Made by a program: the position numbers and the translations under genes. The notes beneath the pieces were generated by a model. That model was not told the origin of the DNA and did no database searches. It saw only the letters and a program-made list of their open reading frames with translations. Below are positions 11,001-51,958 of a stretch of 64,000 nucleotides of DNA, piece after piece (the first letter of the stretch is position 1; each line of letters starts with the position of its first letter). The DNA comes from an uncultured Poribacteria bacterium. Lineage in GTDB: Bacteria > Poribacteria > WGA-4E > WGA-3G. Location: NCBI GenBank assembly GCA_958296135.2, contig CATQHZ020000002.1, positions 64,001 through 128,000 on the forward strand. The letters are read 5' to 3'.

Positions 11001-11362
11001 TATCGTACCTCATGAACTTCTTTCCATTTAGCAACCAAACGAGCCTTTCCATAAACCATCATATACTCATCAATGCAATCATGAAAGTCATGAAATTCAA
11101 TACCGGATACTAGGGCATCAAATTCTTCTATTGTTGCATAAGTGAACAACATATAGTCAAAAGAATTAAAATTACTGCAAAGCAAAACGCTTTCGCAAGC
11201 TGTTTCAAGATCGCATGCAGAATCATTTATTGCTTCATCTACTTCTATTACTAGATGAGTAAAAAGCTCTTCTAGTTTCTTATCAAAATACCGATACATT
11301 TTACTTTCACCGTCGCCACCCTTTATGAATTCATCAAAAATATGATACATGTTATTCCTCAA
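11000..11362 (-). CDS. Hypothetical protein
   Basis: 120-aa acidic ORF. Confidence 0.55.
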   Translation of the reverse strand: MRNNMYHIFDEFIKGGDGESKMYRYFDKKLEELFTHLVIEVDEAINDSACDLETACESVLLCSNFNSFDYMLFTYATIEEFDALVSGIEFHDFHDCIDEYMMVYGKARLVAKWKEVHEVR

Positions 11363-12644
11363 TATTAATTTTAACGTTTGGAAAAGACAATTTTTTAGTT
11401 TTTGTTTTCTTTACTTTAGGCACTTGTTTTACTGGATTAAATAAATCCGTCTGTTTAGGAGTTCCATCAAATAAAACTTCTTCTTCGTTATCCACAATAG
11501 GAACTGCTCCAGCAAATCTTTGTTGAGTTATCTCAATATTTTCTTTGCTTACATCAATACCGATCCAGTGGTATCCCAACTTTTCCGCAATTATTGCAGT
11601 TGTTCCAAATCCAAGAAACGCATCTAATACTCGTGGCGGTCGATCGTCAGGACTTTTAATAAATTTTAAAATACGTTCTATAAGTTCTTCGGTCTTACCA
11701 CCTTTATGACCTCCATTTTCTGGTATTGATACTTGCTCTGGTTTAACGTCATGCCAAGTATCATCAATACCGAACCAGGAATGCCCATTAACTTCTTTTG
11801 GATACTCTTTTTTGTGAACAGCAAATGATCCAAGCTTCTTAACTAGTTCTCGAATATGATTTCCATCTTTTAATGTAATATGCTTTCTATTTTTGATATA
11901 ATAGAGCCGCCCATCATTTAAAAGATGATTCATTTTATTATGATTATGCATCCACTTCTTAACTAAGCCATAGAAATTTGTTTCTGGCCTCGTCACAAAA
12001 GTAACAGGATATTGAGCATATCTCCTAATACCATCAGTATGAGGGAACTTTTCTTCAATTTCTTTATCTTTAATTACTCTAAATTCAGCCTTCTGATCAA
12101 ATTCATACTTTGTTTGATCTTTCGCATAAAATAAAACATATCCAGAACATCTACCCAATCGTTTACTAAATCCGGTTTCGCTTCGTTTACCTTTTCTACC
12201 AACGCTACGTCGATAATTAATCAAATTAATTTTATTATTAAATCCAAAGATCATATCTAGTAAGATTTCGAGATATGCAACTTCTTTATCATCACAAATA
12301 AGAAATAATGATCCATGATCCATTAAAATTCTATGAATTTCGCATAATCGAACCGCCATAAATGTTAAATATGACTTTCGACTTATGTTTTGTTCAGGCA
12401 ACCTATACAAAAATTCATAAACATCTAAATTTAAATCATATAAATTTCTAACATCATCATCTCGATCATCATTCCACTTCCATTCATTTCGATCATCATC
12501 AAAATTTGTATAATTTCGCCCACTATTAAATGGAGGATCAATACAGACTGCATCGACATAATTATCGGGAATCTTTTTAAGAACTTCTAAATTATCGCCG
12601 CAATAGACAGTTCTGTTTGGAAATTTATCGCTAGTTTTAAACAT
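11352..12644 (-). CDS. Beta-class N6/N4 DNA methyltransferase
   Basis: GDNLEVL, IDPPFNSG, VLDAFLGFGTT, WIGID; QTDLF motif near C-terminus. Confidence 0.85.
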   Translation of the reverse strand: MFKTSDKFPNRTVYCGDNLEVLKKIPDNYVDAVCIDPPFNSGRNYTNFDDDRNEWKWNDDRDDDVRNLYDLNLDVYEFLYRLPEQNISRKSYLTFMAVRLCEIHRILMDHGSLFLICDDKEVAYLEILLDMIFGFNNKINLINYRRSVGRKGKRSETGFSKRLGRCSGYVLFYAKDQTKYEFDQKAEFRVIKDKEIEEKFPHTDGIRRYAQYPVTFVTRPETNFYGLVKKWMHNHNKMNHLLNDGRLYYIKNRKHITLKDGNHIRELVKKLGSFAVHKKEYPKEVNGHSWFGIDDTWHDVKPEQVSIPENGGHKGGKTEELIERILKFIKSPDDRPPRVLDAFLGFGTTAIIAEKLGYHWIGIDVSKENIEITQQRFAGAVPIVDNEEEVLFDGTPKQTDLFNPVKQVPKVKKTKTKKLSFPNVKINIEE

Positions 12645-12650
12645 AATAAA

Positions 12651-13232
12651 TTATTTTCCTGTGACTTTACTGGCTCTTTTCTTAATATCATCTAGTGACT
12701 GTATTGCGGATATAAAATTTTTATTCAAATAATAATGTTCTTTACGATTTTTATATTGATCGTCTTTTAGGTTTTTTTGAAAATATTGCTCATGATCTCC
12801 TTCAAATAAATGAAGGAGAAACATATCAGGAGCAGTAGTTTGATGATCTTTTAAACGTCTAAACGGATCTTGACTCCTTCCAATCTTTATATAATCGGAA
12901 CTACCGTTCCATAGTACATATGTATATTGATTAGCAGGATCAATCGGTTTAATATTAATATCTACTGTTAAATTTCGGTTATTAATCGATCTTATTTCTA
13001 TTCCAGGTTGCCCAATAGAACTTCTTACTTCTGGTTCAAGTTCCTCAAACATAAAAGCATTATTAGGCAACCCTATTAACTTATGACTTCCAAATACAGA
13101 TCCTACATATTTTTTAATATGATTAAAATGATCTAAATTCTCGACAGTCCAAGGTTTTTTACCATGCTTTTGAATAATAGCATTTTTAAGATCTCCGATA
13201 TTTGGAAACTTCACATATGATCCTTTGCTCAC
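12651..13232 (-). CDS. GIY-YIG / T5orf172-like nuclease domain protein
   Basis: YTYVLWN...YIKIGRSQDPFRRLKDHQT. Confidence 0.65.
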   Translation of the reverse strand: MSKGSYVKFPNIGDLKNAIIQKHGKKPWTVENLDHFNHIKKYVGSVFGSHKLIGLPNNAFMFEELEPEVRSSIGQPGIEIRSINNRNLTVDINIKPIDPANQYTYVLWNGSSDYIKIGRSQDPFRRLKDHQTTAPDMFLLHLFEGDHEQYFQKNLKDDQYKNRKEHYYLNKNFISAIQSLDDIKKRASKVTGK

Positions 13233-13243
13233 TTTTTATCTCC

Positions 13244-13915
13244 TTAAATTAATGTTACCTGTTTATCGTTTTCTTCTGCCAATTGATCTTGTCGATTTAA
13301 TACAAGAGCATCTATAAAAAGCTTTAAAACCTCTGGATTTTTCATTATAGCAGGCAATAGAACTTTGTTTTCTGCTTCCTTAATATGTTCTCCCAACCGC
13401 TTAATTATGTAACCCTTTAAGGCAATATTCTGAACACCAAGTTCCTTTGCTAATGTCGATCCAGCATCAATAAAATGATAATTTGGCTGATCCGGAATCA
13501 TATCTTTATACATAGAACCCAATAAAAATATATGGGTTGTATGATCATTTTTAGTTAACGGTAATTCAAGAGCTTGAACATATTGTTTACCAAGCAAATA
13601 AATTATCAGATCCCATTTTTGAGCTTCCCGACTCATATCATTATGAATCTGAAGTTCCCTTGCTGTGGATAAAATCTCTTCATTCGACATCGAATTAAAT
13701 GTAACATTGTAAGGCGATACCATATCAAGTTCTTTAAGCAACCCATATTTGGCACTTATGATATATAATCCCATTCCAAACATACCGTAAGTATCGCGCA
13801 TATCACGCACGCCATGTGAAACGTAATGGTGCTGGAGCCCTTGATAAAAGACTCCAGCATATCCAGGTATATTCATCTTCTTTGCGGTACAGCTAGTCAC
13901 TATTAACGTCTTCAT
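13244..13915 (-). CDS. DUF6884/YaaA-like protein, candidate DpdA accessory factor
   Basis: IVTSCTAKK...YQGLQH...YIISAKYGLL...PYNVTF; C-terminal QVTLI. Confidence 0.6.
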   Translation of the reverse strand: MKTLIVTSCTAKKMNIPGYAGVFYQGLQHHYVSHGVRDMRDTYGMFGMGLYIISAKYGLLKELDMVSPYNVTFNSMSNEEILSTARELQIHNDMSREAQKWDLIIYLLGKQYVQALELPLTKNDHTTHIFLLGSMYKDMIPDQPNYHFIDAGSTLAKELGVQNIALKGYIIKRLGEHIKEAENKVLLPAIMKNPEVLKLFIDALVLNRQDQLAEENDKQVTLI

Positions 13916-14157
13916 TTTCCTTCATACCTCGTATAAATTTCATCTTCTTCCTTTTGTGTTCTTTTAGAAAGTTCCTCTACACGCCAATGATCAAAATAGT
14001 TTTCCTCATAGATCTCGTCGCTGTCAGGATATTCATCTTGATCTTTATCCATTTCTTCTCTTATGATCTGATCTCGTTCTTCATAATGCCGGTTCCACAG
14101 ATCATGGATTTCCCACTGCATTCCTTCGCTCATATACATACCTCTCAAGGTTGTCAC
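13912..14157 (-). CDS. Small acidic hypothetical protein
   Basis: ORF coupled to downstream gene. Confidence 0.5.
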   Translation of the reverse strand: MTTLRGMYMSEGMQWEIHDLWNRHYEERDQIIREEMDKDQDEYPDSDEIYEENYFDHWRVEELSKRTQKEEDEIYTRYEGK

Positions 14158-15551: not shown

Positions 15552-16352
15552 TTAATTTAAATTTAGAATAAGTAATTCGTTATAGATCTTACATTTATTT
15601 CGCCAAGCAACATCTATAACATCAAAATCTTTATACAGTTCTCTAATTAGATCATGGTCGCCATAAGACATCATCCAATTAGGAATTTGTTTTAATCTTT
15701 CCGCTAACTCGTTATGATCAAACAGATCTTCAAATCCAACCTGCTGATAATAATATTCTTTTTCAACATATGGTGGATCTAAATATAGAAGCCGCCCATT
15801 AGAACTATCTAACGCTTCTCTGTAATCCGCATACTTAATTGTTACCAATTTATTTTGCCACGATCGAAATTTAGTAAATCGTTTTAAGCTTAAATTCTTA
15901 AGTTTACTACTTAAAGCAATTCTTAAGTTTTTGCCGCCCCACCCAACAGATGTAACATTCCAATACATGGATGCTCTACGTAAATCATCATATTGATTAC
16001 CATTAAAATCTAATGATCCCTTTTTAAATCCATTATATGTATAATACCTTCTTTCTTCATACGAAAGAGGATAAAATTTTAACAGATCATCTATAACTAG
16101 ATCAGCGTCATTAATCCAATACTTCCAAAAGTTAGCTAGTGGTTCAAAGAAATCGGATCCATGAACTTTAATATTAAGATCGGTTAATCTAAGTTCTAGA
16201 CCGCCGCCACCAAAAAATGGCGATACTATTTCTTTTGTTCCTTTTGGCAAATATTTTAAAAAACAGGGATAGAAGTTCCGCTTACTACCCATATACTTTA
16301 ACGGAGTCTCAATTGATGGAGACCCCAATAAATTTAATTGCTTGTCTTTCAT
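15552..16352 (-). CDS. Dam-family (alpha class) DNA adenine methyltransferase
   Basis: LKYMGSK, IVSPFFGGG, YLDPPY, WMMSY; N-terminal QLNLL. Confidence 0.88.
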   Translation of the reverse strand: MKDKQLNLLGSPSIETPLKYMGSKRNFYPCFLKYLPKGTKEIVSPFFGGGGLELRLTDLNIKVHGSDFFEPLANFWKYWINDADLVIDDLLKFYPLSYEERRYYTYNGFKKGSLDFNGNQYDDLRRASMYWNVTSVGWGGKNLRIALSSKLKNLSLKRFTKFRSWQNKLVTIKYADYREALDSSNGRLLYLDPPYVEKEYYYQQVGFEDLFDHNELAERLKQIPNWMMSYGDHDLIRELYKDFDVIDVAWRNKCKIYNELLILNLN

Positions 16353-20265: not shown

Positions 20266-21414
20266 CTAAAAGAATGATACTTGTTGGTTTTTGTAAACCG
20301 TAGAAAAGATTTTAAATTGAGCATTACCATATTTTTCAAGTAATCCTACTTCAAGATCTCTATGCGTCCAACTTATTTGATCAAGCATGCAAAAATTGTG
20401 CATTCTTCTATACAAATATCCTGGTATACCTTCTACGTTTGATTCTTTTTTTAATCGGCTAAGATCTTCACAAAACGGACATCTATGATTTGTGACTTCC
20501 CGAGCCCATCTAAGTTTTTCTTCTGTCATATTGTCGTCTTCATTATCCCGAAGGAGACTACACGATATGCCACCAATATATGGAAAATAAATCTTGCCAA
20601 GCCCAGCACCAATAATCGGAGTGCTTGCGTCAAAGGTCCTAATACCCAAATAGTGCAATATAAATACAGATCCTGGAGACGATATTCCTAAACAATGAAT
20701 TCCAACTCCTTTCTTTTTTAATACTTTTTGTAATTCGTTTAACATAGTTAACGCAGCACCTCTTAATTGTCGTGGCGATCCAGGATGCGTTAAGCATGAT
20801 GCGGAATAAGATGCAAATTTACTCTTATCAAGCATTGGTTTATATGAATTATACATATAATCAATATCTTGATCCTTTCTTAAATGAAATACTGGTGCGA
20901 CTTTACCTTGAATTTCTGGTTTTAAGCACTCAAAAAACTTAAGGGACGCTTCAATTGTATTGTTAATCTTTCTTTTATATCCGTCATGATAAACATCAGA
21001 CAGATTTGGCGGATGATCGGGCATAATGTAAATGTCCGCCCAATCATATTCGTTATAGAGTTCTTCATTGTGCTTCTGAAGATCATCTAAATTAGAAATA
21101 CCTCTACTCTTTAACGATCCTGTTAGAACTTGAAATCCCCCAGAATCAAACATTATATTATCAATTACGCCTTCGCCTTTTAACTCCTTAAGATAATCTA
21201 AAATGCCTTTATTTTTTCGTAAAGCCACAGGTGTTAAGAGCATATTTCTAAATGGTTTTGCTTTTGGCGTTCCTTGCCAATCATAATTGTTAACCAAATC
21301 CATCGCAAATTCAACATGATCAGACATTACGTTTCTGGTTGGAGTACCAATCGCCTGAAAGAATGAACTTTTATGTCGTTTGAACCCGTCATTTTCTTCC
21401 TTAAGATCTACCAT
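20266..21414 (-). CDS. dpdA: DpdA-like (TGT-fold) guanine transglycosylase
   Basis: MFDSGGFQ, PDHPP, PVFH, IHCLG, TFDAS, Zn site HRCPFC...HN; C-terminal QVSFF; preQ0 genes present in window. Confidence 0.75.
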   Translation of the reverse strand: MVDLKEENDGFKRHKSSFFQAIGTPTRNVMSDHVEFAMDLVNNYDWQGTPKAKPFRNMLLTPVALRKNKGILDYLKELKGEGVIDNIMFDSGGFQVLTGSLKSRGISNLDDLQKHNEELYNEYDWADIYIMPDHPPNLSDVYHDGYKRKINNTIEASLKFFECLKPEIQGKVAPVFHLRKDQDIDYMYNSYKPMLDKSKFASYSASCLTHPGSPRQLRGAALTMLNELQKVLKKKGVGIHCLGISSPGSVFILHYLGIRTFDASTPIIGAGLGKIYFPYIGGISCSLLRDNEDDNMTEEKLRWAREVTNHRCPFCEDLSRLKKESNVEGIPGYLYRRMHNFCMLDQISWTHRDLEVGLLEKYGNAQFKIFSTVYKNQQVSFF

Positions 21415-21500: not shown

Positions 21501-24500
21501 TTAAAATTCAATAAAATTTTCAGCCCGTTTGTTCCTATTAGTAGGAATAACACATCCTTTTCCAAACAATTCCTCAATTTTGTCAACGATCTTTGGATTG
21601 TAATCCAATTTATAGTCACTAGAACTTTGAGCAACTACTGTTCCATAATCGATAGTCTTCAAATGTAATACTAAGTTCTTATTACCCTGATAATCTTTAA
21701 CTATTTGTTGTAATGATTCCAATTTTTCTTGGTTATCAATGTCAGGTTCTTGAATAACTACTTCGACTGTATCTATGAGTTTGCCTATATCCTCTAGATT
21801 CATAATCCGATTAATAACTAATTGTTTAGTCTTCTTTCTAGAATCGGTTGATAGTGATCCGTGTACTAATGAAATCATTCCGCTTTCAACTTGATCAGAA
21901 TACGATTGCCAAGTATTCGGAAACGCTACCGCATTAAGAGTTCCTTCTAGATCTTCTATTACCATAGAAGCCATTGATTCTTTCTTTCTAGTCTTAAACG
22001 GTTTAAGATCTGTAATCAATCCAACTAAATAAATATCATTTTTCCTATCTAAAGCGGTTACCGTATTAGAATTCGTAAAATTCTTTATTATTTGTTTGTG
22101 CTGTTCCAATGGATGACCAGAAACATAGAATCCGAGTTGATCCTTTTCATTTTGGAGCTGTTCTATAATTGACCATGGTTCAACCTCTTTCATTGTGGCT
22201 ACAGCTTTCGGACCGCTATCAAACATATCAAATAAATTAACTTGCCCTTGATCTTTATCAGATTTTGCACTTTCTGCAGTCTTCATAACTAGATCAAGAT
22301 TTTCCAGAAATTGTGCCCGATGACCATCAAACGAATCTAACGCTCCACACATGATTAAGTTTTGGATCGTCTTCTTACTAACCGTCTTTGTATCAACTCG
22401 CTCGCAAAAGTCTTCAAATGATTCGAATTTACCATCTTTTCTAGCATTAAGTATCTCTTCGATCGCGCTTTCACCAACATTACTAATTGCAATTAATCCG
22501 AACAGAATAGAATCTTTGTCCACAGAAAAATGGCGTTGACTTCTATTGATATCTGGCGGCAACAATTTTATGGTTCTATCTAGAAATTCTTCTAGGTTAA
22601 CGCATTCATTCCTATACTTAATAAATTTATCGGTATTTGTATGCTCACCAGTCATCATCGCCGCCATAAATTCATGCGGATAATGAGTTTTTAAGTATGC
22701 CATTCTATAAGCTAGAATCGAATAAGCGACCGTATGACTTTTATTAAACGCATATTGACCAAACGGTTCCAAAATATCAAAAACTTGACTAGCTTTCTCT
22801 TCAGAAATTCCATTTTCTATAGCACCATCAACAAACTTTTCGCGCTGTTCCATTAGAAGCGGTTTATTCTTCTTACCCATTGCCGATCTAAGCACATCAG
22901 CTTCACCCATTGTGAACCCAGCCATATCTCGAGCGATCTGCATTACCTGTTCCTGATAAACACAAACCCCATAAGTTCCTTCTAGAGCATCTTTTAACAG
23001 AGGATCTAAGTAAGTAATTGCTTCCCGACCATGCTTCCTATTAATAAATTGCTTCATCATTCCACTCTTCAGTGGTCCAGGTCGGTATAATGCTGGAATT
23101 GCTACAAATTCCTCAAAACTTTCTGGTCGTAAATCAATTGTTACCTGTTTCATACCAGGCGATGTCTCTAATTGAAATAATCCTTGAAGTAATCCCTTTT
23201 GAATTAAATTAAAAGTTGGTTCATCATCAAACGGAATCTCAGTTAATATGATTTCTTTACCATGATTTTCTTTAATTAGTTCTAGGCAATCATAAACTTC
23301 AGTTAAACTCCTGATTCCGAGCGTATCAAACTTAATAATTCCAATATCTTCTACGGCTTTACCTTCATATTGTGTCGCTATTTGATCGTTTCGATCCTTA
23401 AAAAGTGGAACATAATCTGTCAGAGGTCCATTTGACACCACAATAGCAGAGGCATGACAAGAAACATGGCGTTTCATTCCCTCCACTTTCTGTGCTAAAT
23501 CAATTAACTCTCGATTTTTTGGAAGTTCAGCCTCTTTTCTCAATGCAGAATTTTCTGATAATGCATCATCTATTGTAAACTTATTAGCAGATTCTGGAAT
23601 TAAACTAGTAATCTTCTTAATTTGTTCGTTTGGTATTTCTAATGCTTTACCAACATTATTAATTGCCGCTTTTGCACTTAATGTTGAAAATGTTGCTACC
23701 TTTCCGACAGAATCATGCCCATATTTATCAACTAAATATTGGATTACATGTTCCCGCGCTCGATCCGAGAAATCAATATCAATATCTGGCGGACTAATTC
23801 TATCCAGATTTAGAAAACGTTCAAAAAAGCATCCATAATCCATCGGATTAAATGTAATTACATCAAGTGCGAAAAGCACCAAACTGCTACCACCACTACC
23901 ACGAGCAGAAAGAGGATATCCTTTGCTATTAGCAAAGCGCACATAATCCCAAACAACCAAGAAATAACCGGCATACCCTGTTTTAGCAATGATTTCCAGT
24001 TCATAATCTAGCCGTTCCTTAATTTCGGTTGATAATTCCCCATATTTCTTTTTCAAACTTGTATAACAAAGTTCTTTTAGGTAAGAATCATTAGTATGAC
24101 CTTGAGGAACTTCGTATTCTGGCAGTAAATTATCTCCATAATCAAGCTCAATATTACAGCGTTCCGCAATCCGCATAGTATTTGTTAATGCTTCTTCCGG
24201 ATACATCTTGAGAGCTTCTTTCATTTCGTCATAAGTTTTAAAATAGAAATGATTATCAAACATCATTCTATCTGTATCATTAACCGTCTTCTTCATTTGA
24301 ATGCAAAGCAGAATATCATGCATATAATGATCTTCTCGATTCAGGTAATGACAGTCATTAGTTCCAACTATTGGTATATCGTATTCTTTTGCTAATTCAT
24401 AAATAACTGGATAAGCTTGTTCTTCTTCTTTAATATAATGATTTTGCACTTCGGCATACAAATTGTCTTTGCCAAGCACATCGATTAACTGCTTAAAATT

Positions 24501-24962
24501 AGCAATACCCTTCTCTTTACTTGTGGATATAGCTTTCGGCACAAAGCCAGCAACACAACCAGTTAATCCAATGATTCCTTCATTGTGATCTCGAAGAATT
24601 TCCATATCGATTCGTGGTTTACTATAGAATCCTTCTGTATAGCCCACAGAAACCATCTTAAGTAGATTCTTATATCCAGTAGCATTTTCGGCAAGCAATG
24701 TTAAATGATATGGTGGTCCCTGTTCCTTGCCTCTAGTCTTTCTACTGCCTGGCGCGACATAAACTTCACAGCCAACAATTGGATTGACACCCTTTTGCCG
24801 AGCCTTTGTCATGAAATCCCATGCAGTAAACATATTTCCATGATCTGTTAAACCCACAGCGGATGAGCTGTTTTGGACAGCCCAATCCACCATGTCTTCG
24901 ATCTTACAAGCACCATCAAGCAGACTTCCATCTGAATGATTATGTAAATGTATAAATTCCAT
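21501..24962 (-). CDS. dnaE: DNA polymerase III alpha subunit
   Basis: PHP FIHLHNHS/TDHG, RGSGGSS, PDIDIDF, KFDTLG, AFNKSH, clamp motif QVNLF; no intein. Confidence 0.97.
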   Translation of the reverse strand: MEFIHLHNHSDGSLLDGACKIEDMVDWAVQNSSSAVGLTDHGNMFTAWDFMTKARQKGVNPIVGCEVYVAPGSRKTRGKEQGPPYHLTLLAENATGYKNLLKMVSVGYTEGFYSKPRIDMEILRDHNEGIIGLTGCVAGFVPKAISTSKEKGIANFKQLIDVLGKDNLYAEVQNHYIKEEEQAYPVIYELAKEYDIPIVGTNDCHYLNREDHYMHDILLCIQMKKTVNDTDRMMFDNHFYFKTYDEMKEALKMYPEEALTNTMRIAERCNIELDYGDNLLPEYEVPQGHTNDSYLKELCYTSLKKKYGELSTEIKERLDYELEIIAKTGYAGYFLVVWDYVRFANSKGYPLSARGSGGSSLVLFALDVITFNPMDYGCFFERFLNLDRISPPDIDIDFSDRAREHVIQYLVDKYGHDSVGKVATFSTLSAKAAINNVGKALEIPNEQIKKITSLIPESANKFTIDDALSENSALRKEAELPKNRELIDLAQKVEGMKRHVSCHASAIVVSNGPLTDYVPLFKDRNDQIATQYEGKAVEDIGIIKFDTLGIRSLTEVYDCLELIKENHGKEIILTEIPFDDEPTFNLIQKGLLQGLFQLETSPGMKQVTIDLRPESFEEFVAIPALYRPGPLKSGMMKQFINRKHGREAITYLDPLLKDALEGTYGVCVYQEQVMQIARDMAGFTMGEADVLRSAMGKKNKPLLMEQREKFVDGAIENGISEEKASQVFDILEPFGQYAFNKSHTVAYSILAYRMAYLKTHYPHEFMAAMMTGEHTNTDKFIKYRNECVNLEEFLDRTIKLLPPDINRSQRHFSVDKDSILFGLIAISNVGESAIEEILNARKDGKFESFEDFCERVDTKTVSKKTIQNLIMCGALDSFDGHRAQFLENLDLVMKTAESAKSDKDQGQVNLFDMFDSGPKAVATMKEVEPWSIIEQLQNEKDQLGFYVSGHPLEQHKQIIKNFTNSNTVTALDRKNDIYLVGLITDLKPFKTRKKESMASMVIEDLEGTLNAVAFPNTWQSYSDQVESGMISLVHGSLSTDSRKKTKQLVINRIMNLEDIGKLIDTVEVVIQEPDIDNQEKLESLQQIVKDYQGNKNLVLHLKTIDYGTVVAQSSSDYKLDYNPKIVDKIEELFGKGCVIPTNRNKRAENFIEF

Positions 24963-25508: not shown

Positions 25509-27056
25509 TTATATTATTTCTAATAGATCAGCTTGATTATCTTCTACATGTGGATCCATTTTTCTGCTAATTTTAATTCTATCTGGCAATTTAATTAATT
25601 GATTAATTGACTCTGGATTGTCAAAATATTCTTGAGTTATTTGCCAGAATTGTATTTTTTTATATTGAATGCCATTATGATTAAAGTTTCCCATTTTACT
25701 GCCTTCTTCTTTCATTCCAGCACTAACTTTTTCCACAGTAATGAATACTCCGGCTATCGCATTATTTTTCTTTACTGATTGACAAAATGCTCTAACCTGA
25801 GCCAGTGTTGGTTTTCCAGATTTGACTTCTGCTATAACAATTCCATCATTTAGTTTCATATTTTGCGGAACCCATACCTCGACATCGCCAACTCCATCAT
25901 AACCTCCATCATTAGAATTCTGAGTTGGATTTAATCCTATTCTTGTAACCGCCCAATTAGCAAAATCATGATAAGATTTATTATTCTTAACTAATTCATG
26001 AACTTCCTGCATATTGGTCGGATAACCTTCCAAATCATAATCAATACAAGCTTTTAATTTATATCTTTCATATATCCGATCTTTCATTGGTTCAAGAGCT
26101 AGTAATGTAAGATCTATTCCTTCCCAACGTCTTCTTTTTGCTTGAGCCGCATCAATTGTTGTTCCGCAACCAGCAAATGGATCTAAAACTAAATCTCCTT
26201 TATTTGAAGATGCTTCAATCATCATTTCATATAATTTTCTTGGCTTTTGAGTTGGATAACCTGTTCGCTCTTTACTCTGAGTTGCTGTACCAAAACTAGG
26301 TATATCAGTCCAATAATCTGGAGTTGGAATTCCTAAATATTCATCAAGATACTTTCTTTTTCCATGTTCTTTGGTATAAACCTTATATCGTCTTCCATCT
26401 TCATCAATTTTAGGAAATCTTTTTTCAAGATCTTCTTGACTTATATTTTGATACAATCGATTGAAAGTAGACTTATTTGATTTTCTATAAAATAGAATAT
26501 TATCATGCTTTCTTGGATACCCATACTTAGGAGGATTTCCTTTAACTGCATATGTCCAGATTATTTCATTTAGAAAATTTTCGTTATCGCAATTATTTTT
26601 TTGATCAAAAACAGCATCAAAAATTACTTTTAAATAATGGCTTGCTGTCGGATCGCAATGCAGATAAATACTTCCTGTCGGTTTTAAAATTCTATGCATT
26701 TCAACAATTCGTGGCCCCATAAAAGCTAAATATGAACGCATAGCACCACGCCATCCAGTTTCTTTATGTTGCAATAAATAATCACAGCCAATTAGAGCTT
26801 GATCAACTGAACTATAAACCGTATCATTTAATAAATCATCTTTAGCTCTAATCCGAATATCTTCTCTAGAATTTTCTGCCGATTTATCGTAAAACCATAT
26901 ATCGGTAAATGCTTTCTTTTGAGCTTGCGATTCTAAAAAGTCGTTATAATCTCTTCCACTATTAAAAGGTGGATCTGTGCATATTATATCAACTCTATTA
27001 GACTTCATTTCGCGCATTACTTCTAAATTATCGCCAAAATAAAGTTTATTTCTCAT
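25509..27056 (-). CDS. Beta-class DNA methyltransferase fused to Mrr-like endonuclease domain
   Basis: GDNL, DPPFNS, GYPTQKP, VLDPFAGCGTT; DGGYDG..EVK; C-terminal QADLL. Confidence 0.88.
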   Translation of the reverse strand: MRNKLYFGDNLEVMREMKSNRVDIICTDPPFNSGRDYNDFLESQAQKKAFTDIWFYDKSAENSREDIRIRAKDDLLNDTVYSSVDQALIGCDYLLQHKETGWRGAMRSYLAFMGPRIVEMHRILKPTGSIYLHCDPTASHYLKVIFDAVFDQKNNCDNENFLNEIIWTYAVKGNPPKYGYPRKHDNILFYRKSNKSTFNRLYQNISQEDLEKRFPKIDEDGRRYKVYTKEHGKRKYLDEYLGIPTPDYWTDIPSFGTATQSKERTGYPTQKPRKLYEMMIEASSNKGDLVLDPFAGCGTTIDAAQAKRRRWEGIDLTLLALEPMKDRIYERYKLKACIDYDLEGYPTNMQEVHELVKNNKSYHDFANWAVTRIGLNPTQNSNDGGYDGVGDVEVWVPQNMKLNDGIVIAEVKSGKPTLAQVRAFCQSVKKNNAIAGVFITVEKVSAGMKEEGSKMGNFNHNGIQYKKIQFWQITQEYFDNPESINQLIKLPDRIKISRKMDPHVEDNQADLLEII

Positions 27057-28780: not shown

Positions 28781-29641
28781 TTAAATTAATTTAACAGTAT
28801 CACCATATCTTTTAGGAAAGATTACTACTTCTTTGGCTGATTTATGAGTATTTGTTCCTTGATTCCACCATTGATGTTTAATAATAAAATCATCATCAGA
28901 ATAAAGATCAAGAATCAATTCATGATTATTATATGATAACATCCATAAAGAATTACGATTTCTTAATATGTCTCTAAGTTCTTCATGATTAAAATCAGTA
29001 TGAAATTTATGGCTATCTCCATATAAGTTTCCGCGTACTGGATATGGAGGATCAAGATATGTGAACGTATCCGGATACCGATTTAATTGATCTTTGTAAT
29101 CTAAAAGATCTACTGTTATTAATGAATTACGAAAGACATCTAATCTATCAAAGAATGTCATTCGATCATGTTCATATCCTTTTAAATATGCATCCCGACC
29201 AATAATAACATAATTTCTTAAACCAGCAAATGGTATTCCATTCCATGAAAGACAATAAAACAACCATAAATACGCCGCCCGATCAAGATTATTTGTAATT
29301 TTAAAATAATCTTCTTTTTGAAGTTCTTTTAATTCTTCTCTTGTATCACTAAGTAATATTTCTTGTGCTCTTCTAGATAAGTTTTTATTATCAGTTAAAA
29401 TATGCTTCCATAAATTAACCAGCGGTTCAAATAGATCAGATCCAAGCACCCTAATATTTCTACCAGTCAAATACAATTCAAAAGATCCGCCACCAAAAAA
29501 TGGTGATACTACTTCTTTCGTACCTGGAGGTAGAATATTAGCGAAATGTTTTGCTGCTGTAGATTTACTTCCTGGATATCTAAATACTCTATCTACAGAT
29601 CTATTATCTTGTTCAAAGAAATTGAACTGTTTATTAGGCAT
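28781..29641 (-). CDS. Dam-family (alpha class) DNA adenine methyltransferase
   Basis: FRYPGSK, VVSPFFGGG, YLDPPY, WMLSY; N-terminal QFNFF. Confidence 0.88.
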   Translation of the reverse strand: MPNKQFNFFEQDNRSVDRVFRYPGSKSTAAKHFANILPPGTKEVVSPFFGGGSFELYLTGRNIRVLGSDLFEPLVNLWKHILTDNKNLSRRAQEILLSDTREELKELQKEDYFKITNNLDRAAYLWLFYCLSWNGIPFAGLRNYVIIGRDAYLKGYEHDRMTFFDRLDVFRNSLITVDLLDYKDQLNRYPDTFTYLDPPYPVRGNLYGDSHKFHTDFNHEELRDILRNRNSLWMLSYNNHELILDLYSDDDFIIKHQWWNQGTNTHKSAKEVVIFPKRYGDTVKLI

Positions 29642-32704: not shown

Positions 32705-33244
32705 TTATTTAATCATAGATAAAAACTCTTGGCGAGCCGAATGATCTTTTCTAAATACCCCTTCCATTGCACTTGTGATCATATAAGCGTCTTGTTTTTG
32801 AACTCCTCTCATTGACATACAAGTATGCCGAGCTTTACATATAACCCCAACTCCCAACGGATCTAATAAATTCGTTAAAGTATCAGCTATTTGATTTGTT
32901 AATCTTTCTTGAACTTGTAATCTCCTAGCAAACATATCTACGATACGCGGAATTTTACTAAGTCCAATAATTTTTCCATGTGGAATATATCCAACATCAC
33001 AAGAACCCATAAATGGGAGCAGATGATGTTCACATAAACTATGAAATTCTATATCACGGACTACAACCATTTGATCATAGTTTCCATGAAATACCGCATT
33101 ATTTAAAAGTTGTTCTGGATCAATAGAATATCCAGCGGTTAAGTCTTTCATTGCCTGAGCGGCTCTTGATGGAGTCTTTAATAATCCTTCTCGTTCAGGA
33201 TCTTCTCCAATTGATTCTAAAATGTTAAAGTAATGATGTACCAT
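32705..33244 (-). CDS. folE: GTP cyclohydrolase I
   Basis: [49 protein letters not shown]. Confidence 0.97.
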
Positions 33245-33408
33245 TATTCTCTCCACGGATCCCCATTCACCGCATAATATGTTAAAAATCCCACTATAAT
33301 TACTACTATTAATGCGGCTATTATAAATCCAATCATATTCTTCCTTCCAAATACAAAATACGCTAGTATGATGATAAACGTAGCTAGTAATTCTATGAGT
33401 CCAATCAT
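33244..33408 (-). CDS. Small two-TM membrane peptide (not in ORF track)
   Basis: [54 protein letters not shown]; TAATG coupling to folE. Confidence 0.55.
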
Positions 33409-35011: not shown

Positions 35012-35692
35012 CTATTGATACGGAATCGGATCTTCAATACCAGATTCTTTAAACGCCGCAAGCCTAATTAAGCAAGAGTCACATTTTCCACAAGCTCGTC
35101 CATATTCATCAGGATCATAACACGAACTTGTAAAAGCGTAATTAACATCTAAGCTTGTTCCCAATCGAATAATATCTACTTTTGTCAATTCGATTAACGG
35201 AGTATAAACATTTATCGGACTACCTTCTACCGTTCTTTTTGTGGCCACATTGACCATGTTTTGATATGCTTTAATATATTCTGGCCTGCAATCTGGATAC
35301 CCAGAATAATCTACAGCATTAACACCAGTAAAAATTGCTTCCGCTCCAAGAACTTCCGCATACGATAACGCAAAACTAAGAAAAATAGTATTCCTTGCAG
35401 GAACATATGTTACCGGAATTGCGTCTGTCATTTCATCCAATGATCTTCCCTTCGGAACTTCGATCGTCGGATCATTAAGAGCACTACCACCAAAAGTCGT
35501 AAAAGAAACAACCTTATGATCAACAGCATTATGAATCTTACTTGTCGTTTTCGCGCAACTTAATTCATATTTATGACGCTGATTGTAATCAAAACTTAAC
35601 GTATGCGTCTCATATCCACCAGCTCGTGCGACCCCCAATGCGGTCGCACTATCCAATCCACCCGACAAAAGTACTACTGCTTTCTTACTCAT
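35012..35692 (-). CDS. queC: 7-cyano-7-deazaguanine synthase
   Basis: LLSGGLDS, YVPARNTIF, YSGYPDCRPE, SCY...CGKCDSC. Confidence 0.97.
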   Translation of the reverse strand: MSKKAVVLLSGGLDSATALGVARAGGYETHTLSFDYNQRHKYELSCAKTTSKIHNAVDHKVVSFTTFGGSALNDPTIEVPKGRSLDEMTDAIPVTYVPARNTIFLSFALSYAEVLGAEAIFTGVNAVDYSGYPDCRPEYIKAYQNMVNVATKRTVEGSPINVYTPLIELTKVDIIRLGTSLDVNYAFTSSCYDPDEYGRACGKCDSCLIRLAAFKESGIEDPIPYQ

Positions 35693-40713: not shown

Positions 40714-40714
40714 T

Positions 40715-41415: not shown

Positions 41416-41437
41416 GATTAAACTCCTTGATTTTAAA

Positions 41438-42142
41438 CTAAACTCCGCGCTTGGTCCCCCAGAGCCGAGTATGCAGTCTATCCGAATATCGAAATCCATG
41501 TGCCATACACAATTCAACTAACCATAATTGCTTATCTTCAACTTCTTTTGCTGTTCTTCCTTCTGGCATCAATAAGACATTACGATTACTATATTGCCTT
41601 AAACTTCCCAGAATATCTTGAATCTCTTCAAGCTCGCTCCCATCTACTACGACAAACTTAAGCTGATAATCCCGAAGATTATTATGAGTGCAACGACTAA
41701 TAAATTCATCGATCACATCAATCTTAACTCGTTCTCGATCATGTTTCTTCGCCCACTTCGGATCGCGATCATATGGAGTTGAACTTTCTAACTTTGGACT
41801 CATCGACATTAAATCAAATTCAACTTCCTCAAAGATCGTAGCATTTGTTTCAATCGTAATATGATAGCCGTCATACCAAAGTTGGTCACAAAGAAATCTT
41901 AATTCTTTTTTCCATACGAATGGTTCGCCACCAGTAATAACTACGTTCTTACAGCCATACTCTTCAATCATGTTGACTGCTTGTTCTACTGTGACCTCTT
42001 TATTTTCCGGCTTCCAACTAGTATATGGCGTATCGCACCAATGACATCTTAAGTTGCAGTGAGAAACCCGAAAAAATACGCTTGGTAGACCTGTCTTAAT
42101 TCCTTCACCTTGAATCGAGTAGAAAATTTCTGACATCTTCAT
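41438..42142 (-). CDS. queE: 7-carboxy-7-deazaguanine synthase (radical SAM)
   Basis: EIFYSIQGEG, CNLRCHWCDT, ITGGEP, IETN, SPK, RLH. Confidence 0.96.
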   Translation of the reverse strand: MKMSEIFYSIQGEGIKTGLPSVFFRVSHCNLRCHWCDTPYTSWKPENKEVTVEQAVNMIEEYGCKNVVITGGEPFVWKKELRFLCDQLWYDGYHITIETNATIFEEVEFDLMSMSPKLESSTPYDRDPKWAKKHDRERVKIDVIDEFISRCTHNNLRDYQLKFVVVDGSELEEIQDILGSLRQYSNRNVLLMPEGRTAKEVEDKQLWLVELCMAHGFRYSDRLHTRLWGTKRGV

Positions 42143-42918
42143 AATTTATTATCCTCTAATAGATTTATTTGACCAGATTTTTTATCTTGTTCTAATCTTC
42201 TTTTATGAAATTCTTCTTTAACTCTTCTGCTAATTTCTTTTCTTGTTTCAATGGAATGATTTTTATTATACATTCCATTATTTTCACCGCTAACTAAATA
42301 TCCTTTACCATACATCGGATTAGATTTTCCGGTTCTGCCATACATTGGGTGGTTTTTACCTTGAAGGCTTGGTCTTGGTCCACGTAATTTTTCTTTATGA
42401 TCTTCAGACAACGATTTATTCTTATTCCAAGCAACTTGCCCTCGTCTTCCATAATTTGGATGATCTTTACCAGTTTTCCCATATAAAGGACTATTTTTCC
42501 CTTGCAAATGCGGTCTCGGACCACGAGCATTTGGTCTTGGACCACGAAGTTTTTCTTTAACCTCTTCCGACCATGGTTTATTCTTATTCCAAGGTTCTTT
42601 TCCATAAGTTGGATGATCTTCTCCACAAGGAAATCCTTCGCCGCCAATAGTTAAATTATATCCAAACCCTTTATATGTATTAAGAGATGCTATTGTTCGT
42701 ATTTCTAAATCTGATAGCATCCATTCTGGTATATTATCATAAAGAATTTCCCAACCGAAATTATTAGATCCATATTTTTGTATTGCTGAATCTATTCCAA
42801 TTTTCAAATTACTTCTAAAATGTTCCCGAATTCGATCTTTTATATTTCTAGCAGTTTTCCCAATATATGATTTTTGGTTACTTATTTTATAGATTCTATA
42901 AATACATCCATATTTCAT
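42139..42918 (-). mobile_element. Free-standing GIY-YIG homing endonuclease with NUMOD3 repeats
   Basis: GCIYRI...SYIGKT, GYNLTIGG, repeated NPMYGK/PWNK units; sits between dnaN and queE; hairpin next to SD. Confidence 0.85.
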
Positions 42919-42961
42919 AATTAATTCTCCTTTATGGGTAGGGCTAAACCCTACCATTATG

Positions 42962-44074
42962 TTATGCAGATAAAAGAGCGATCGTATAGATCTGATTCTC
43001 TTTATCAGGACATTTTAAAGTAATTCTAAGATTATCTGGTGACATTAAAATCATAACTTCTTCGCAATCTAAATGATTTAAAACTCCAGACAAAAACTTC
43101 GCATTAATTTTAAAATCGATAGCTTCTGTTTTACTAGAAATATCTACAGACTCGTGACCATCATATTCCAGGTTGTTCTGAGCTGTAATATCTAAAGTAT
43201 TTTCTTCTTCGTTAACCGAAAGATCAATCCCATAACTATCATCTCGAGCAAATAACCCAATTCTTTGAATTGCTCTTAATAGTTGATCTTTATTTGCGAG
43301 TACCGCTTTTCCATTCTCGAAGTTAATAATCGCCCAGTAATTTGGATAACCTTCATCGCCTAGTTCGATTTTTCTAGACGAAAACTGATATGTATTAGTA
43401 AAGAATACTAAGTAATTATTTTCCACAAAGACAAAGATGTCTTCATCATCAGAAAATACCTTTTTAATTTCCTGACAAGACTTCAATGGAATTACCATTT
43501 GCTCTATTTCTTTATCAATTTTAGTTTGATATGTAGCTACAGCAAACATTCTTCCATCGCAACCAGCAAACTCGATTTTATCACTGTAAAACGTAAGAGA
43601 AACCCCATGAAGCCGATATCGAACTTCTTCAGTTGATGCTGCAAAATCAGTATCGATCAGAGCCGCTTTTAAATTTCCAGCCGGAATAATAAAATCAACT
43701 TCTTCTTCATTTACTTCTGGCATTCTAGGAAATTCGTCAGCCTCTAGTCCGCCAAAAGAATATTTACCTTTACCACTTAATACCTGCAATCGATCAGTAG
43801 TCGTAGTTCTTAAATCTACTTCTTTTGCGTCCAAAGACTTAATTAGATTTGCTAACTTTTTACAATTAACTGTAATTTTACCCCGTTCCTCAGTTTTGCC
43901 ATCAACTAAAATTCTTGTTGATATTTCTCCATTAGTCGCTGTGCAATATAATCCATGATCAACAGCATCTAAAAGAACGTTTTGCAGAATTGGAGTCGTC
44001 GTTCTATTTGGAGTAACAGATTGCAACTTCTGTAACGCTTGTGCCAATTCTTTTTGCTTTATAGTAATTTTCAT
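42962..44074 (-). CDS. dnaN: DNA polymerase III beta sliding clamp
   Basis: TPILQNVLL, ATNGE, ADEFP, FAASTEEVRYRLHGV, CDGR, YPNY, INAKFL; 370 aa. Confidence 0.93.
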   Translation of the reverse strand: MKITIKQKELAQALQKLQSVTPNRTTTPILQNVLLDAVDHGLYCTATNGEISTRILVDGKTEERGKITVNCKKLANLIKSLDAKEVDLRTTTTDRLQVLSGKGKYSFGGLEADEFPRMPEVNEEEVDFIIPAGNLKAALIDTDFAASTEEVRYRLHGVSLTFYSDKIEFAGCDGRMFAVATYQTKIDKEIEQMVIPLKSCQEIKKVFSDDEDIFVFVENNYLVFFTNTYQFSSRKIELGDEGYPNYWAIINFENGKAVLANKDQLLRAIQRIGLFARDDSYGIDLSVNEEENTLDITAQNNLEYDGHESVDISSKTEAIDFKINAKFLSGVLNHLDCEEVMILMSPDNLRITLKCPDKENQIYTIALLSA

Positions 44075-44551: not shown

Positions 44552-44944
44552 CTAAAACATAAAATGGAGTTGGACCGGTTCTCTTTTTGGAGGTTCATAG
44601 ACACCCAAAATTCTTTCATATTTATTGATTAGTTTCATAAAGAAATCAGATTCGTCGCCAAAAAATTCTTGAACTTTAGCGCACCAGTCCGCCCTCTCTG
44701 AAAATTCATCAGTCAAAGAATTATAGATTTCTTTTAGTTGATTAGCTTGTTCTTTTTCATCAATCTTTTCGTATTCTACTATAACATCAGCAACATAATT
44801 TTGCAAATACTCTATATTTGCATAAGTATCATAACTTGGCTCATCAGCATTGACAAGCCAAAACATTTCATTTCTAGCATAAGCGATCTTTTGCTTCATT
44901 CTAGCATTATGTAATGCTGTTTTTACTGCACTATTCCAATCCAT
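44552..44944 (-). CDS. Hypothetical protein with C-terminal clamp-binding-like QLHFMF
   Basis: 130-aa ORF. Confidence 0.55.
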   Translation of the reverse strand: MDWNSAVKTALHNARMKQKIAYARNEMFWLVNADEPSYDTYANIEYLQNYVADVIVEYEKIDEKEQANQLKEIYNSLTDEFSERADWCAKVQEFFGDESDFFMKLINKYERILGVYEPPKREPVQLHFMF

Positions 44945-46396: not shown

Positions 46397-46409
46397 TATG
46401 GACCTCATT

Positions 46410-46446
46410 AAAAAGCCCCTTGAATGCAATTAAGATTCAAGAGGCT
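46410..46446 (-). terminator. Intrinsic terminator after ssb
   Basis: AGCCTCTTGAAT-loop-ATTCAAGGGGCT followed by TTTT. Confidence 0.65.
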
Positions 46447-49570: not shown

Positions 49571-49916
49571 TGGAGATGGCGGGAGTCGAACCCGCGTCTG
49601 CAGTATCTATCATAAAAAATATGCTACATGTTTAGTACCAATTTAAGTTTCGCAAGTGCTAGCTTTGATACAGAGCCTACACTGAACTATTCTGCTTAAT
49701 AAGAATTATGGTCACAGAAATCCCATAATAATTTGCACTTCGCTATTGCAATCTTATTTATTGAAGGCTAAATAATAAGATTGTGCTGCTTAAGCAGCCA
49801 GAGCATATTCAAAATTGTCTTCGAATATTAGTTGTTGTCGCCATTTAACGAGACCTGCGACATTCTCGACATGCAATTCTTTATTCAACGATCCACATCG
49901 ATTCCAATTCATCCCC
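49571..49916 (-). ncRNA. ssrA: tmRNA; predicted tag (A)EDNFEYALAA
   Basis: 5' GGGGATG pairs with 3' CATCTCC-A including G3:U70; T-arm GCGGGTTCGACTCCCGC; internal GAAGACAATTTTGAATATGCTCTGGCTGCTTAA; 346 nt. Confidence 0.93.
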
Positions 49917-49924: not shown

Positions 49925-49998
49925 TACCGCTGAAGAGATTTGAACTCTTACTGAAAAGTGTTTAAGACTTTTGCCTCTGCCAGTTGGGCTACAGCGGC
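49925..49998 (-). tRNA. tRNA-Leu (TAA), short variable loop
   Basis: GCCGCTG...AAAGT CTTAAAC ACTTT TCAGT AAGAGTTCAAATCTCTT CAGCGGT A. Confidence 0.85.
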
Positions 49999-50824: not shown

Positions 50825-50898
50825 AGTCCCTAGCAGGACTCGAACCTGCAACTTCCGGATTAGAAATCCAGTGCTCTGTCCAATTGAGCTATAGGAAC
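50825..50898 (-). tRNA. tRNA-Arg (TCT)
   Basis: GTTCCTATAGCTCAATTGGACAGAGCA CTGGA TTTCTAA TCCGG ... GCAGGTTCGAGTCCTGC TAGGGAC. Confidence 0.93.
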
Positions 50899-50901
50899 AC
50901 G

Positions 50902-51060
50902 CGATAAAGGAAGCAAGGAGGTTAAAAAAATCTTCCTTTATCGATACCGGATCGATGGTCCTTGTAGTTGGGGTAACCAAGAAAAACCAACTAATAGACT
51001 GATCCTTCCTATAAAGACCTTGAATAGAACTTTTAATTCAATTCCCATTATTTAAACTGT
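50902..51060 (-). ncRNA. Candidate structured ncRNA in the leader of tRNA-Arg
   Basis: Perfect 12-bp stem 50902-50913/50932-50943 and a second long hairpin 50949-51005; downstream of a class B promoter motif. Confidence 0.4.
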
Positions 51061-51077
51061 CCTATCCTTTATATTAT

Positions 51078-51112
51078 TAAAATATTAAATTTTCAACCCC
51101 TTTTAAATCCAA
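51078..51112 (-). promoter_or_regulatory. Class B promoter motif, copy 9
   Basis: Consensus match upstream of the RNA gene cluster. Confidence 0.8.
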
Positions 51113-51142
51113 GAAATTTTTATTTGAAAATTATTTTTTCAA

Positions 51143-51958
51143 TCAAATTAATACTACTTGACGATTTGGATCTATGTTATTTAGTCTGTTATTGCTTAAC
51201 TCAACAAAATTATTATTAATCTCAAAGGATATAAAATTTCTATTGGTGCGCTTACATACCGCCGCACATGTTCCTACCCCAGAAAATGGATCAAGAACCA
51301 AATCGTCTTCTAAAGAGCTAGCTAATATTAATCGTTCAAATAATTTTTCCGGTTTCTGAATCGTATTTAATGCGTCTCGAGAAACGAGTTCTTTTGAATT
51401 ATATGTAAGCTGTTTAATATCCCCCCAAACATCTCCTGGGTTCTTTCCATCTTTATTAAATTTAGTTTTGCTATATTTACCACCTATTACAGACGGAACC
51501 TGTTCACAGCGAATACGATGAGATAATTCCACTAGTTGTGGTACCCGAATATCATCCAGGTTATAACATCGAGGACGCTTTCCTTTAATAAAATAACAAA
51601 TGATATCATAATTATTTGTATAATTAATTTTCCCTTGTGACAATCTACTCGGTTGATACCAAACGATTTTTGATTTTAATGTTAGAAATTTTCTATAATC
51701 AATAAAATCAATACAATCCGGTTTTCCAAATAAATATAGAGATCCACCTTCTTTTAATTTTTCAGCAAATAACTCAATAAGATTTAAATTAAATTCTTGA
51801 ATTAATTCTATTTTGTCCCAGTCATAATTTGTTATACCATAAGGACCATCACATATAATTAAATCTACGGATTCATTATCTACTGATTTAATTAGTTCAA
51901 ACATATCTCCACAATAAATATTATTTAATTTTATCATAATTTCTTTTTTATTGGTCAC
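51143..51958 (-). CDS. Beta-class N6/N4 DNA methyltransferase
   Basis: VDLIICDGPY, NPGDVW, QKPEKL, VLDPFSGVGT; C-terminal QVVLI. Confidence 0.88.
   Translation of the reverse strand: MTNKKEIMIKLNNIYCGDMFELIKSVDNESVDLIICDGPYGITNYDWDKIELIQEFNLNLIELFAEKLKEGGSLYLFGKPDCIDFIDYRKFLTLKSKIVWYQPSRLSQGKINYTNNYDIICYFIKGKRPRCYNLDDIRVPQLVELSHRIRCEQVPSVIGGKYSKTKFNKDGKNPGDVWGDIKQLTYNSKELVSRDALNTIQKPEKLFERLILASSLEDDLVLDPFSGVGTCAAVCKRTNRNFISFEINNNFVELSNNRLNNIDPNRQVVLI

Follow-up and report, generated by a model that had tools for sequence, protein, structure and literature searches.

Probable beta-clamp-binding peptides at the ends of DNA-modifying enzymes in the replication module of a 144-kb phage

Clients of the bacterial beta sliding clamp, among them Pol II, Pol IV, Pol V, the alpha subunit of Pol III, MutS and Hda, carry a Q-led hydrophobic peptide of five to six residues that is disordered, lies at a terminus or in a linker, and is conserved among orthologs. 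The consensus is a pentapeptide, Q-x-x-[LM]-F, or a hexapeptide, Q-x-x-L-x-L, and the pentapeptide can show a QxSLF profile. The peptide is N-terminal in Hda and C-terminal in Pol II and Pol IV, and the client motifs are reported to have been defined as QL[SD]LF and QLxLxL (Dalrymple 2001). Here, we analyze a window of 64,000 nucleotides, positions 64001-128000 of a 143,886-bp phage contig (CATQHZ020000002.1) in the assembly GCA_958296135.2 of an uncultured Poribacteria bacterium. In this window, short peptides, hereafter called tags, are found at or near the ends of predicted DNA-modifying enzymes of the phage, and judged by their sequences they are probably motifs of the beta-clamp-binding type.

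Many clamp clients share one cleft, the general "toolbelt" concept outlined in passages of PMC9690074. The clients in the window differ from the described ones in being DNA methyltransferases, a transglycosylase of the DpdA type and a DUF6884 protein, and their clamp may be phage-encoded. A full-text literature search, with most subscription journals outside its scope, found bacterial and phage DNA methyltransferases, DpdA and DUF6884 nowhere described as carrying clamp-binding motifs. The window may be described as a known mechanism, the clamp toolbelt, with new classes of client in a phage, a predicted reading that is partly supported.

The eukaryotic maintenance methyltransferase DNMT1 is recruited to PCNA by a PCNA-interacting-protein (PIP) box, according to passages of PMC9690074. 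It is similar in that a DNA methyltransferase is tethered to a sliding clamp by a short motif and methylation follows replication. It differs in the clamp and the motif (PCNA and PIP box), in the domain of life and in serving epigenetic maintenance rather than restriction protection, and there is no homology. In phage T4, an interaction between the alpha-glucosyltransferase (alpha-GT) and the clamp gp45 was proposed in 2004, as cited in a preprint from 2025 (bioRxiv 10.64898/2025.12.06.692756). Parts of the same preprint report that alpha-GT and beta-GT did not co-purify with gp45, in vitro or in vivo, and the T4 case is contested. The likeness is that a phage hypermodification enzyme would ride on the phage clamp and modify DNA along with replication; the differences are that gp45 is not a DnaN-type clamp and that no canonical motif is involved. 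The MuC protein of phage Mu likewise uses a beta clamp to land on DNA that has been replicated, for late transcription (PMC12867686), but it is a transcription activator and not a modification enzyme, and the clamp is only that of the host. The Dpd system, with DpdA (PDB 7ui4), shares with the window the fold of the tRNA-guanine transglycosylases (TGT), a weak profile match and preQ0 pathway genes in the same genome, action on DNA being predicted here. In contrast to DpdA, to which the match is distant, the phage clade has a C-terminal clamp-type tag, which the homologs from bacterial genomes lack.

The contig has a GC (guanine plus cytosine) content of 36.8%, and the co-assembled chromosome is 5.01 Mb at 54.4% GC. 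The contig is a phage genome, because capsid, protease, tape-measure and tail-tube genes are present, and its minus strand holds 169 of the 184 open reading frames (ORFs) of at least 50 amino acids (aa). The window is the replication, nucleotide and DNA-modification module of this phage. The initial annotation listed ten peptides in the window, and re-translation confirmed all of them at their places. Each fits the pattern Q-x-x-[LF]-[FLI] or is the hexapeptide QLHFMF. The proteins concerned, together with the phage clamp, are as follows.

11352..12644, minus strand: N6_N4 methyltransferase of 430 aa (PF01555 over residues 30-374), with QTDLF at 11439-11453, past the catalytic domain and 28 aa before the C-terminal end
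13244..13915, minus strand: DUF6884 protein of 223 aa (Pfam PF21818, 47.2 bits against a cut-off of 30), with C-terminal QVTLI at 13247-13261
15552..16352, minus strand: second D12-class Dam methyltransferase, 266 aa from the ATG at 16352 (Pfam PF02086), with N-terminal QLNLL (residues 5-9) at 16326-16340
20266..21414, minus strand: predicted DpdA-like DNA-guanine transglycosylase of the TGT superfamily, 382 aa (profile and fold), with C-terminal QVSFF at 20269-20283
21501..24962, minus strand: DnaE (Pol III alpha), 1,153 aa (six Pfam domains), with internal QVNLF at 22230-22244, residues 907-911
25509..27056, minus strand: N6_N4 methyltransferase fused to an Mrr-like domain (Pfam PF01555, PF22722 and PF04471), with QADLL at 25521-25535, 3 aa from the C-terminal end
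28781..29641, minus strand: D12-class Dam methyltransferase of 286 aa (Pfam PF02086), with N-terminal QFNFF (residues 5-9) at 29615-29629
42139..42957, minus strand: GIY-YIG/NUMOD3 endonuclease (Pfam PF01541 and PF07460; singleton cluster), candidate client with QINLL at 42157-42171, 5 aa from the C-terminal end
42962..44074, minus strand: DnaN beta sliding clamp of 370 aa (Pfam PF00712, PF02767 and PF02768, all three domains), the proposed docking platform
44552..44944, minus strand: ORF of 130 aa (no Pfam or PHROG family and no usable lead from an Atlas search), candidate client two genes upstream of dnaN, ending in QLHFMF at 44555-44572
51143..51958, minus strand: N6_N4 methyltransferase of 271 aa (Pfam PF01555), with C-terminal QVVLI at 51146-51160, an ambiguous tag

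At least eight phage proteins carry candidate tags. The methyltransferases of the module are the three of the N6_N4 type (11352, 25509 and 51143; 96.9, 134.1 and 129.9 bits against PF01555) and the two D12-class Dams (15552 and 28781; 82.3 and 86.5 bits against PF02086), all above the cut-off. The initial annotation held that all seven modification proteins were tagged. The seven peptides are present, but that of methyltransferase 51143 is ambiguous, and the DUF6884 protein is putatively DNA-binding rather than a demonstrated modification enzyme. For the DpdA-like protein, the DUF6884 protein and the Dams, the tags are very likely functional motifs and we regard the assignment as firm in these lineages; the other proteins are likely to be clients and are treated as candidates.

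The profile of the DpdA-like protein and its homologs (22 sequences) matches the DNA-guanine transglycosylase of PDB 7ui4 distantly, with E=2.5e-4 over 52 residues. Pfam TGT (PF01702) is matched by 11 of the 22 clade members, and the window protein by itself has no match at 0.01. Its AlphaFold2 model has a mean predicted local distance difference test score (pLDDT) of 90.4 and a predicted template modelling score (pTM) of 0.90, and the top 50 Foldseek hits are all tRNA-guanine transglycosylases (E 2e-9 to 2e-8, template modelling scores of about 0.5-0.58). Invariant columns in the clade alignment include D90, S91, G92, G93 and Q95 as well as H310, C312, C315 and H339, which may correspond to the catalytic site (Asp) and the zinc site of TGT.

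Conservation of the tail was followed in 21 metagenome homologs with 87% to 27% identity. Of the 21, 16 end exactly in Q-x-[STD]-[LF]-[FLVW], three end in a shortened Q-L-[LY]-F and two have nothing of the kind, and the tail is kept in two homologs even with 200-residue N-terminal extensions. The entropy is 0 bits at position -5 (Q), 2.8 bits at -4 and about 1 bit at -3, -2 and -1. The preceding 20 positions are mostly at 2-3.2 bits, with dips to 1.45 at -15 and 1.78 at -17. With its clade consensus QxSLF, this C-terminal profile is, as far as the sequences go, that of the clamp motif. Outside the clade the ending is nearly absent: it was read by eye in none of 79 C-complete distant homologs that a search with the family alignment found in bacterial genomes, and it occurs in two of 80 distant homologs from Joint Genome Institute (JGI) metagenomes (QPSLF and QIRLF). 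Single-protein scans of IMG/VR gave zero relatives, a search of IMG/VR with the alignment gave two distant loci, both untagged, and 50,697 cultured phage records held no close relative (three matches, at most 29% identity).

The DUF6884 protein has both family motifs conserved in the alignment, C9-T-A-K-K13 and I-S-A-K-Y-G. The family is described, in parts of PMC11701544, by the motifs CxxxK and LSAxxG and as putatively DNA-binding and base-flipping, possibly with a role in repair. Its tag is found in 12 of 13 homologs, as QV[ST]LI, QLELF, QMELF, QLELL, QMNLF or QLNFL followed by three residues. Since relatives end in L-F, the L-I of the window protein is a local variant of the L-F motif. The tail is missing from all 42 cellular DUF6884 ORFs, which come from 30 loci in the same phylum. 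Several of these lie very near the phage clade (E down to 3e-59), one of them on the co-assembled chromosome, and the near ones end where the phage linker starts. A search of IMG/VR with the DUF6884 alignment gave zero relatives.

In the two Dam methyltransferases, QLNLL and QFNFF are at residues 5-9 when read from starts that are also those of the public gene calls. The two proteins are paralogs, aligned from residue 1 with 34% identity, and their tags therefore represent a single acquisition and not two convergences. The initial annotation spoke of unrelated folds converging on clamp tags, which overcounts the events; seven independent convergences are rejected, as the Dam pair is paralogous. 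The pentapeptide precedes motif I in 17 of 23 Dam homologs (42-66% identity). Three of the remaining homologs have Q-x-E-[FL]-D-L, which in sequence resembles the hexapeptide class of clamp motif, another is truncated at its N-terminus, and in the last two the form is degenerate. Among the next 96 Dams (at most 45% identity), four were flagged with a tag and most begin directly at motif I, and two of 80 IMG/VR Dam loci were flagged, with only one being convincing.

The terminal peptides also lie in parts of the models with low confidence. In the DpdA-like model, residues 377-382, which make up the tag, have a pLDDT below 50, and so do residues 1-8 in the model of Dam 28781 (mean pLDDT 87.1). 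The predicted disorder of these tails makes it less likely that the tags belong to the folds. Selection on the tags as short linear motifs in three unrelated families is supported, because the tag is conserved while the linker varies, it is absent or nearly absent in distant homologs, and the tails are predicted to be disordered. The conservation in relatives that the initial annotation had called for is found for the DpdA-like, DUF6884 and Dam proteins, and it is ambiguous for methyltransferase 51143.

The phage-encoded DnaN noted in the initial annotation is a full three-domain beta clamp. Its residues 1-365 align to solved beta clamps with E down to 6e-33, and among cellular clamps it is most similar to the dnaN of the co-assembled chromosome (37% identity). 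A single-protein scan of IMG/VR with DnaN gave zero relatives, and the cultured-phage collection held no close relative (at most 27% identity). In an alignment with the E. coli alpha chain of 5fku, QVNLF of DnaE falls on QLDLF, behind the HHH_6 domain at residues 798-884. The E. coli stretch is presumably the internal clamp-binding site of alpha, and the polymerase of the phage would therefore use the same kind of peptide as the tagged enzymes.

The closest cellular dnaN match among 41 genomes of the same order and a close DUF6884 relative are both located on the co-assembled chromosome (458138-459175 and 4307761-4308102). Both suggest that this lineage is the host or a donor of genes, even though the GC contents are 18 points apart. 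Genomes of the family of the co-assembled bacterium have 2-5 dnaN-like genes, often in tandem.

Tagged methyltransferases also occur beside dnaN in other phages. In a comparison set of five cultured phages encoding dnaN, an N6_N4 methyltransferase of Alteromonas phage XX1924 (32863-33864) ends in QTELF-COOH and directly abuts dnaN, and one of Microcystis phage Mae-JY04 (3758-5194) ends in QIDLFGAVA two genes from dnaN. A methylase of Salinibacter phage M1EM-1 ends in TPSLFS and one of Rhizobium phage RR1-A in MPSLFD..., and none of the three annotated methyltransferases of Agrobacterium phage Rivra is tagged. The strict C-terminal motif is present in 2 of 8 methyltransferases vs 3 of 257 other ORFs of these phages (P=0.008), with the five methylases of Rivra and RR1-A counted by annotation only. 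Other proteins in the set deserve mention. Phage RR1-A has a PAPS (phosphoadenosine phosphosulfate)-reductase-like protein between two methylases that starts MMQPTLF, and a hypothetical ORF that ends in QLQLFGSQND (40567-41778 and 22699-23190, respectively). A NUMOD3/I-TevI-like ORF of M1EM-1 (31096-31755) ends in GQLRLPLGAT, which is similar to the hexapeptide clamp motif and parallels the tagged GIY-YIG/NUMOD3 enzyme of the window.

In the N6_N4 family around methyltransferase 51143, 9 of 116 full-length representatives (about 8%) have the motif at most 2 aa from the C-terminus, vs 14 of 3,889 background ORFs (0.36%; P=5e-10). The nine tagged representatives are P0209, P0239, P0243, P0246, P0255, P0267, P0280, P0284 and P0157.

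Several observations speak against clamp-binding tags, or against the phage clamp as their partner. The pattern and the protein classes were picked after seeing the data. Several endings are F-F, L-L or L-I instead of L-F, and the L-I endings (QVTLI and QVVLI) are unusual relative to the clamp consensus, though DUF6884 relatives change to L-F. The Dam tag keeps an almost constant distance of 10 aa to motif I, a spacing that might reflect a structural role. In the five other phages with dnaN, six of the eight methyltransferases are without the strict motif; two of the six end in P-S-L-F, with no Q. The phage DnaN itself has CDGRMF where cellular clamps have a "TD..L" stretch, and ends in ALLSA where they have PMRL. 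A complete IMG/VR phage (L178) has a Dam ending in QLSLF, yet has no match to PF00712 (dnaN). The candidate clients add to these points. The closest full-length representative of methyltransferase 51143 (64% identity) has no tail, and neither has the next (49%), although a 227-aa representative with 65% identity ends in QESFL. In the cluster look-up, the relatives of methyltransferase 11352, the methyltransferase-Mrr fusion, the GIY-YIG endonuclease and ORF 44552 are either at least 90% identical or absent. QTDLF of methyltransferase 11352 is kept in two full-length relatives, which is weak evidence at this identity, the tail of ORF 44552 in three, and the 90% cluster of the methyltransferase-Mrr fusion has one member. 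The tags of these four proteins are therefore putative ones, assigned by resemblance. Finally, the TGT family also includes members that modify proteins (10.1101/2025.04.06.647259).

The two divergent stretches of DnaN are ones we take to line the clamp cleft. Their divergence means that canonical specificity should not be assumed, and leaves room for an altered one. The tagged Dam in a phage that lacks dnaN makes the host clamp an equally good partner, and the initial annotation, which tethered the enzymes specifically to the phage-encoded clamp, overstated the case. A phage-owned clamp as a requirement is rejected, given the complete L178 phage. Given this phage and the nine tagged N6_N4 representatives, the tag seems to recur among methylases of the phage type and not to depend on a phage-encoded clamp.

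The terminal motifs could be conserved for a partner other than a beta clamp, such as another replisome protein, the Hsp70 and DnaJ-domain proteins that the phage encodes, or a protease that times turnover. Conservation shows selection and not the identity of the partner, and the DnaN segments diverge at the "TD..L" and "PMRL" stretches, but the DpdA-like profile, with its invariant Q, variable second position, small polar third position, L/F and F/L at the extreme terminus, fits the clamp motif and also fits QVNLF of DnaE at the canonical site. Methyltransferases with QTELF and QIDLF moreover adjoin dnaN in unrelated phages. We therefore consider another partner unlikely, though not negligible, and a beta clamp is the most likely, indeed the probable, partner of the tags.

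Chance combined with post hoc matching is very improbable as an explanation of the whole set. It would start from a loose five-residue pattern selected by eye in a low-GC proteome rich in L, F, I, N and K, and the interior of the phage proteome does contain 38-42 pattern matches. The pattern is still concentrated at the ends, with 7 occurrences at most 5 aa from an end vs 1.86 expected from the interior frequency (P=0.003; 169 minus-strand phage ORFs). A C-terminus that is exactly the pattern is found in 3 of 169 phage ORFs vs 6 of 3,889 ORFs of the co-assembled chromosome (0.15%), and the pattern lies at most 5 aa from the C-terminus in 5 of 169 vs 23 of 3,889 (0.59%). The terminal enrichment is modest but real, and the C-terminal rates on the phage are several-fold to about tenfold those of the chromosome. 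The initial annotation had suggested a scan of ORF termini for enrichment in DNA-acting proteins. The pattern was found at most 10 aa from an end in 6 of 7 modification proteins vs 2 of 162 other ORFs (Fisher P=6.6e-9), a value on which we place little weight because the classes were defined after the fact. In addition to the enrichment, chance fails to account for the independent recurrence in other phages, or for a tag kept in three families while the flanks vary, with few exceptions among the 79, 80, 96, 80 and 42 distant homologs. It is thus contradicted for the DpdA-like, DUF6884 and Dam proteins, and stays possible for methyltransferases 51143 and 11352, with the weak instances QVVLI and QTDLF (28 aa from the end), and for ORF 44552. 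That the tags bind the clamp mainly for takeover, saturating the host clamp cleft so that the polymerases and repair proteins of the host are displaced, we hold to be scarcely credible, since the tags are specific to DNA-modifying enzymes (the same 6 of 7 vs 2 of 162) rather than to abundant early proteins and the phage dnaN adds to the clamp supply, even though at least eight proteins have candidate tags and competitors for the cleft such as the SocB toxin are known (passages of PMC9690074).

Other genes of the module, found by Pfam and PHROG scans, include those for SSB, RusA-like, Gam-like, SprT-like and RNA-ligase proteins and for Tmk, ThyA and Dut. No clamp-loader gene was recognised on the phage contig in these general family scans. 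The primase-helicase and the enzymes of the preQ0 pathway are located as follows.

5046..5795, minus strand: QueD-like enzyme, untagged (PHROG 2389, QueD-like, E=3e-11)
6494-9190 of the window: primase-helicase
32705..33256, minus strand: FolE (GTP cyclohydrolase I), preQ0 pathway, untagged (Pfam PF01227, E=8e-76)
35012..35692, minus strand: QueC, preQ0 pathway, untagged (Pfam PF06508, E=5e-73)
41438..42142, minus strand: QueE-like radical-SAM (S-adenosylmethionine) enzyme, untagged (Pfam PF04055 and PF13353)

As the initial annotation had it, the soluble precursor enzymes are without tags: the seven proteins FolE, QueC, QueD, QueE, ThyA, Dut and Tmk have zero matches anywhere, even to a broadened pattern.

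A stand-alone Mrr-like (NA-iREase1) protein at 24962-25435, minus strand, is also untagged. It adjoins the methyltransferase-Mrr fusion, and the two Pfam families that it matches are also matched, with similar scores, by the C-terminal domain of the fusion. Directly upstream of ORF 44552 and dnaN are two tandem paralogs (44931-45593 and 45590-46429, minus strand) with common starts and ends and without a Pfam or PHROG family. Between the replication module and methyltransferase 51143, the phage encodes a transfer-messenger RNA (tmRNA; 49571-49916, minus strand) with the tag peptide EDNFEYALAA, adjoined by tRNA-Leu (49925-49998) and tRNA-Arg (50825-50898); a tRNA-Tyr is found at 9147-9231. Amid the DNA-metabolism genes lies a 565-aa protein (16461-18158, minus strand) with a signal-like N-terminal start, an FlgD immunoglobulin-like domain and a weak C-terminal sorting domain of the type IX secretion system (T9SS) type. 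The module is followed by giant ORFs of 2,257 aa (window 55091-61864) and about 4,987 aa (phage contig 125876-140839, starting at window 61876). Outside the window, at 9021-10880 and 11979-12305 of the phage contig, are the genes for a full-length Hsp70/DnaK (PF00012, E=5e-256) and for a protein with a DnaJ domain.

The mechanism we propose would work as follows. The phage would make preQ0 through FolE, QueD, QueE and QueC, and would replicate with its own DnaE and DnaN, while it encodes a predicted transglycosylase of the TGT/DpdA type, five DNA methyltransferases and the DUF6884 protein. Several of these DNA-acting enzymes have apparently acquired a short disordered terminal peptide, Q-x-[S/T/N/D/E]-[L/F]-[F/L/I], that would dock in the hydrophobic cleft of a beta clamp that stays behind on newly replicated DNA, whether this is the phage DnaN, the host clamp or both. 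Docking would concentrate the enzyme on the nascent duplex and let it slide. Methylation and the exchange of guanine for 7-deazaguanine would then closely follow the fork, and the phage DNA would be unmodified for a shorter time.

More tentatively, and with somewhat more doubt than confidence, we suggest that clamp-tethered post-replicative modification is a general, previously undescribed phage strategy. In the window it would take the form of a complete "modification toolbelt" carried by a clamp of the phage. Its members would be a 7-deazaguanine transglycosylase of the DpdA type, several methyltransferases, a base-flipping DUF6884 protein and an endonuclease of the homing type, and the diverged cleft would have co-evolved with the F-F, L-L and L-I endings. 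The same strategy would recur in the Alteromonas and Microcystis phages and in about 8% of one N6_N4 family.

It is an old question how phages manage to modify an entire genome quickly enough to evade host restriction. The window is a cleaner case than T4, as the peptides are of the canonical clamp type, conserved, predicted to be disordered and terminal, and their carriers share only their action on new DNA. If the proposal is true, the bacterial clamp interactome would gain DNA methyltransferases and DpdA as members, and there would be a prokaryotic parallel to DNMT1 and PCNA. It would also provide a one-line sequence rule for spotting replication-coupled modification enzymes in phage genomes. 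As the tag can be removed, it would offer a handle on the weight of a "modification lag" in the conflict between phage and host.

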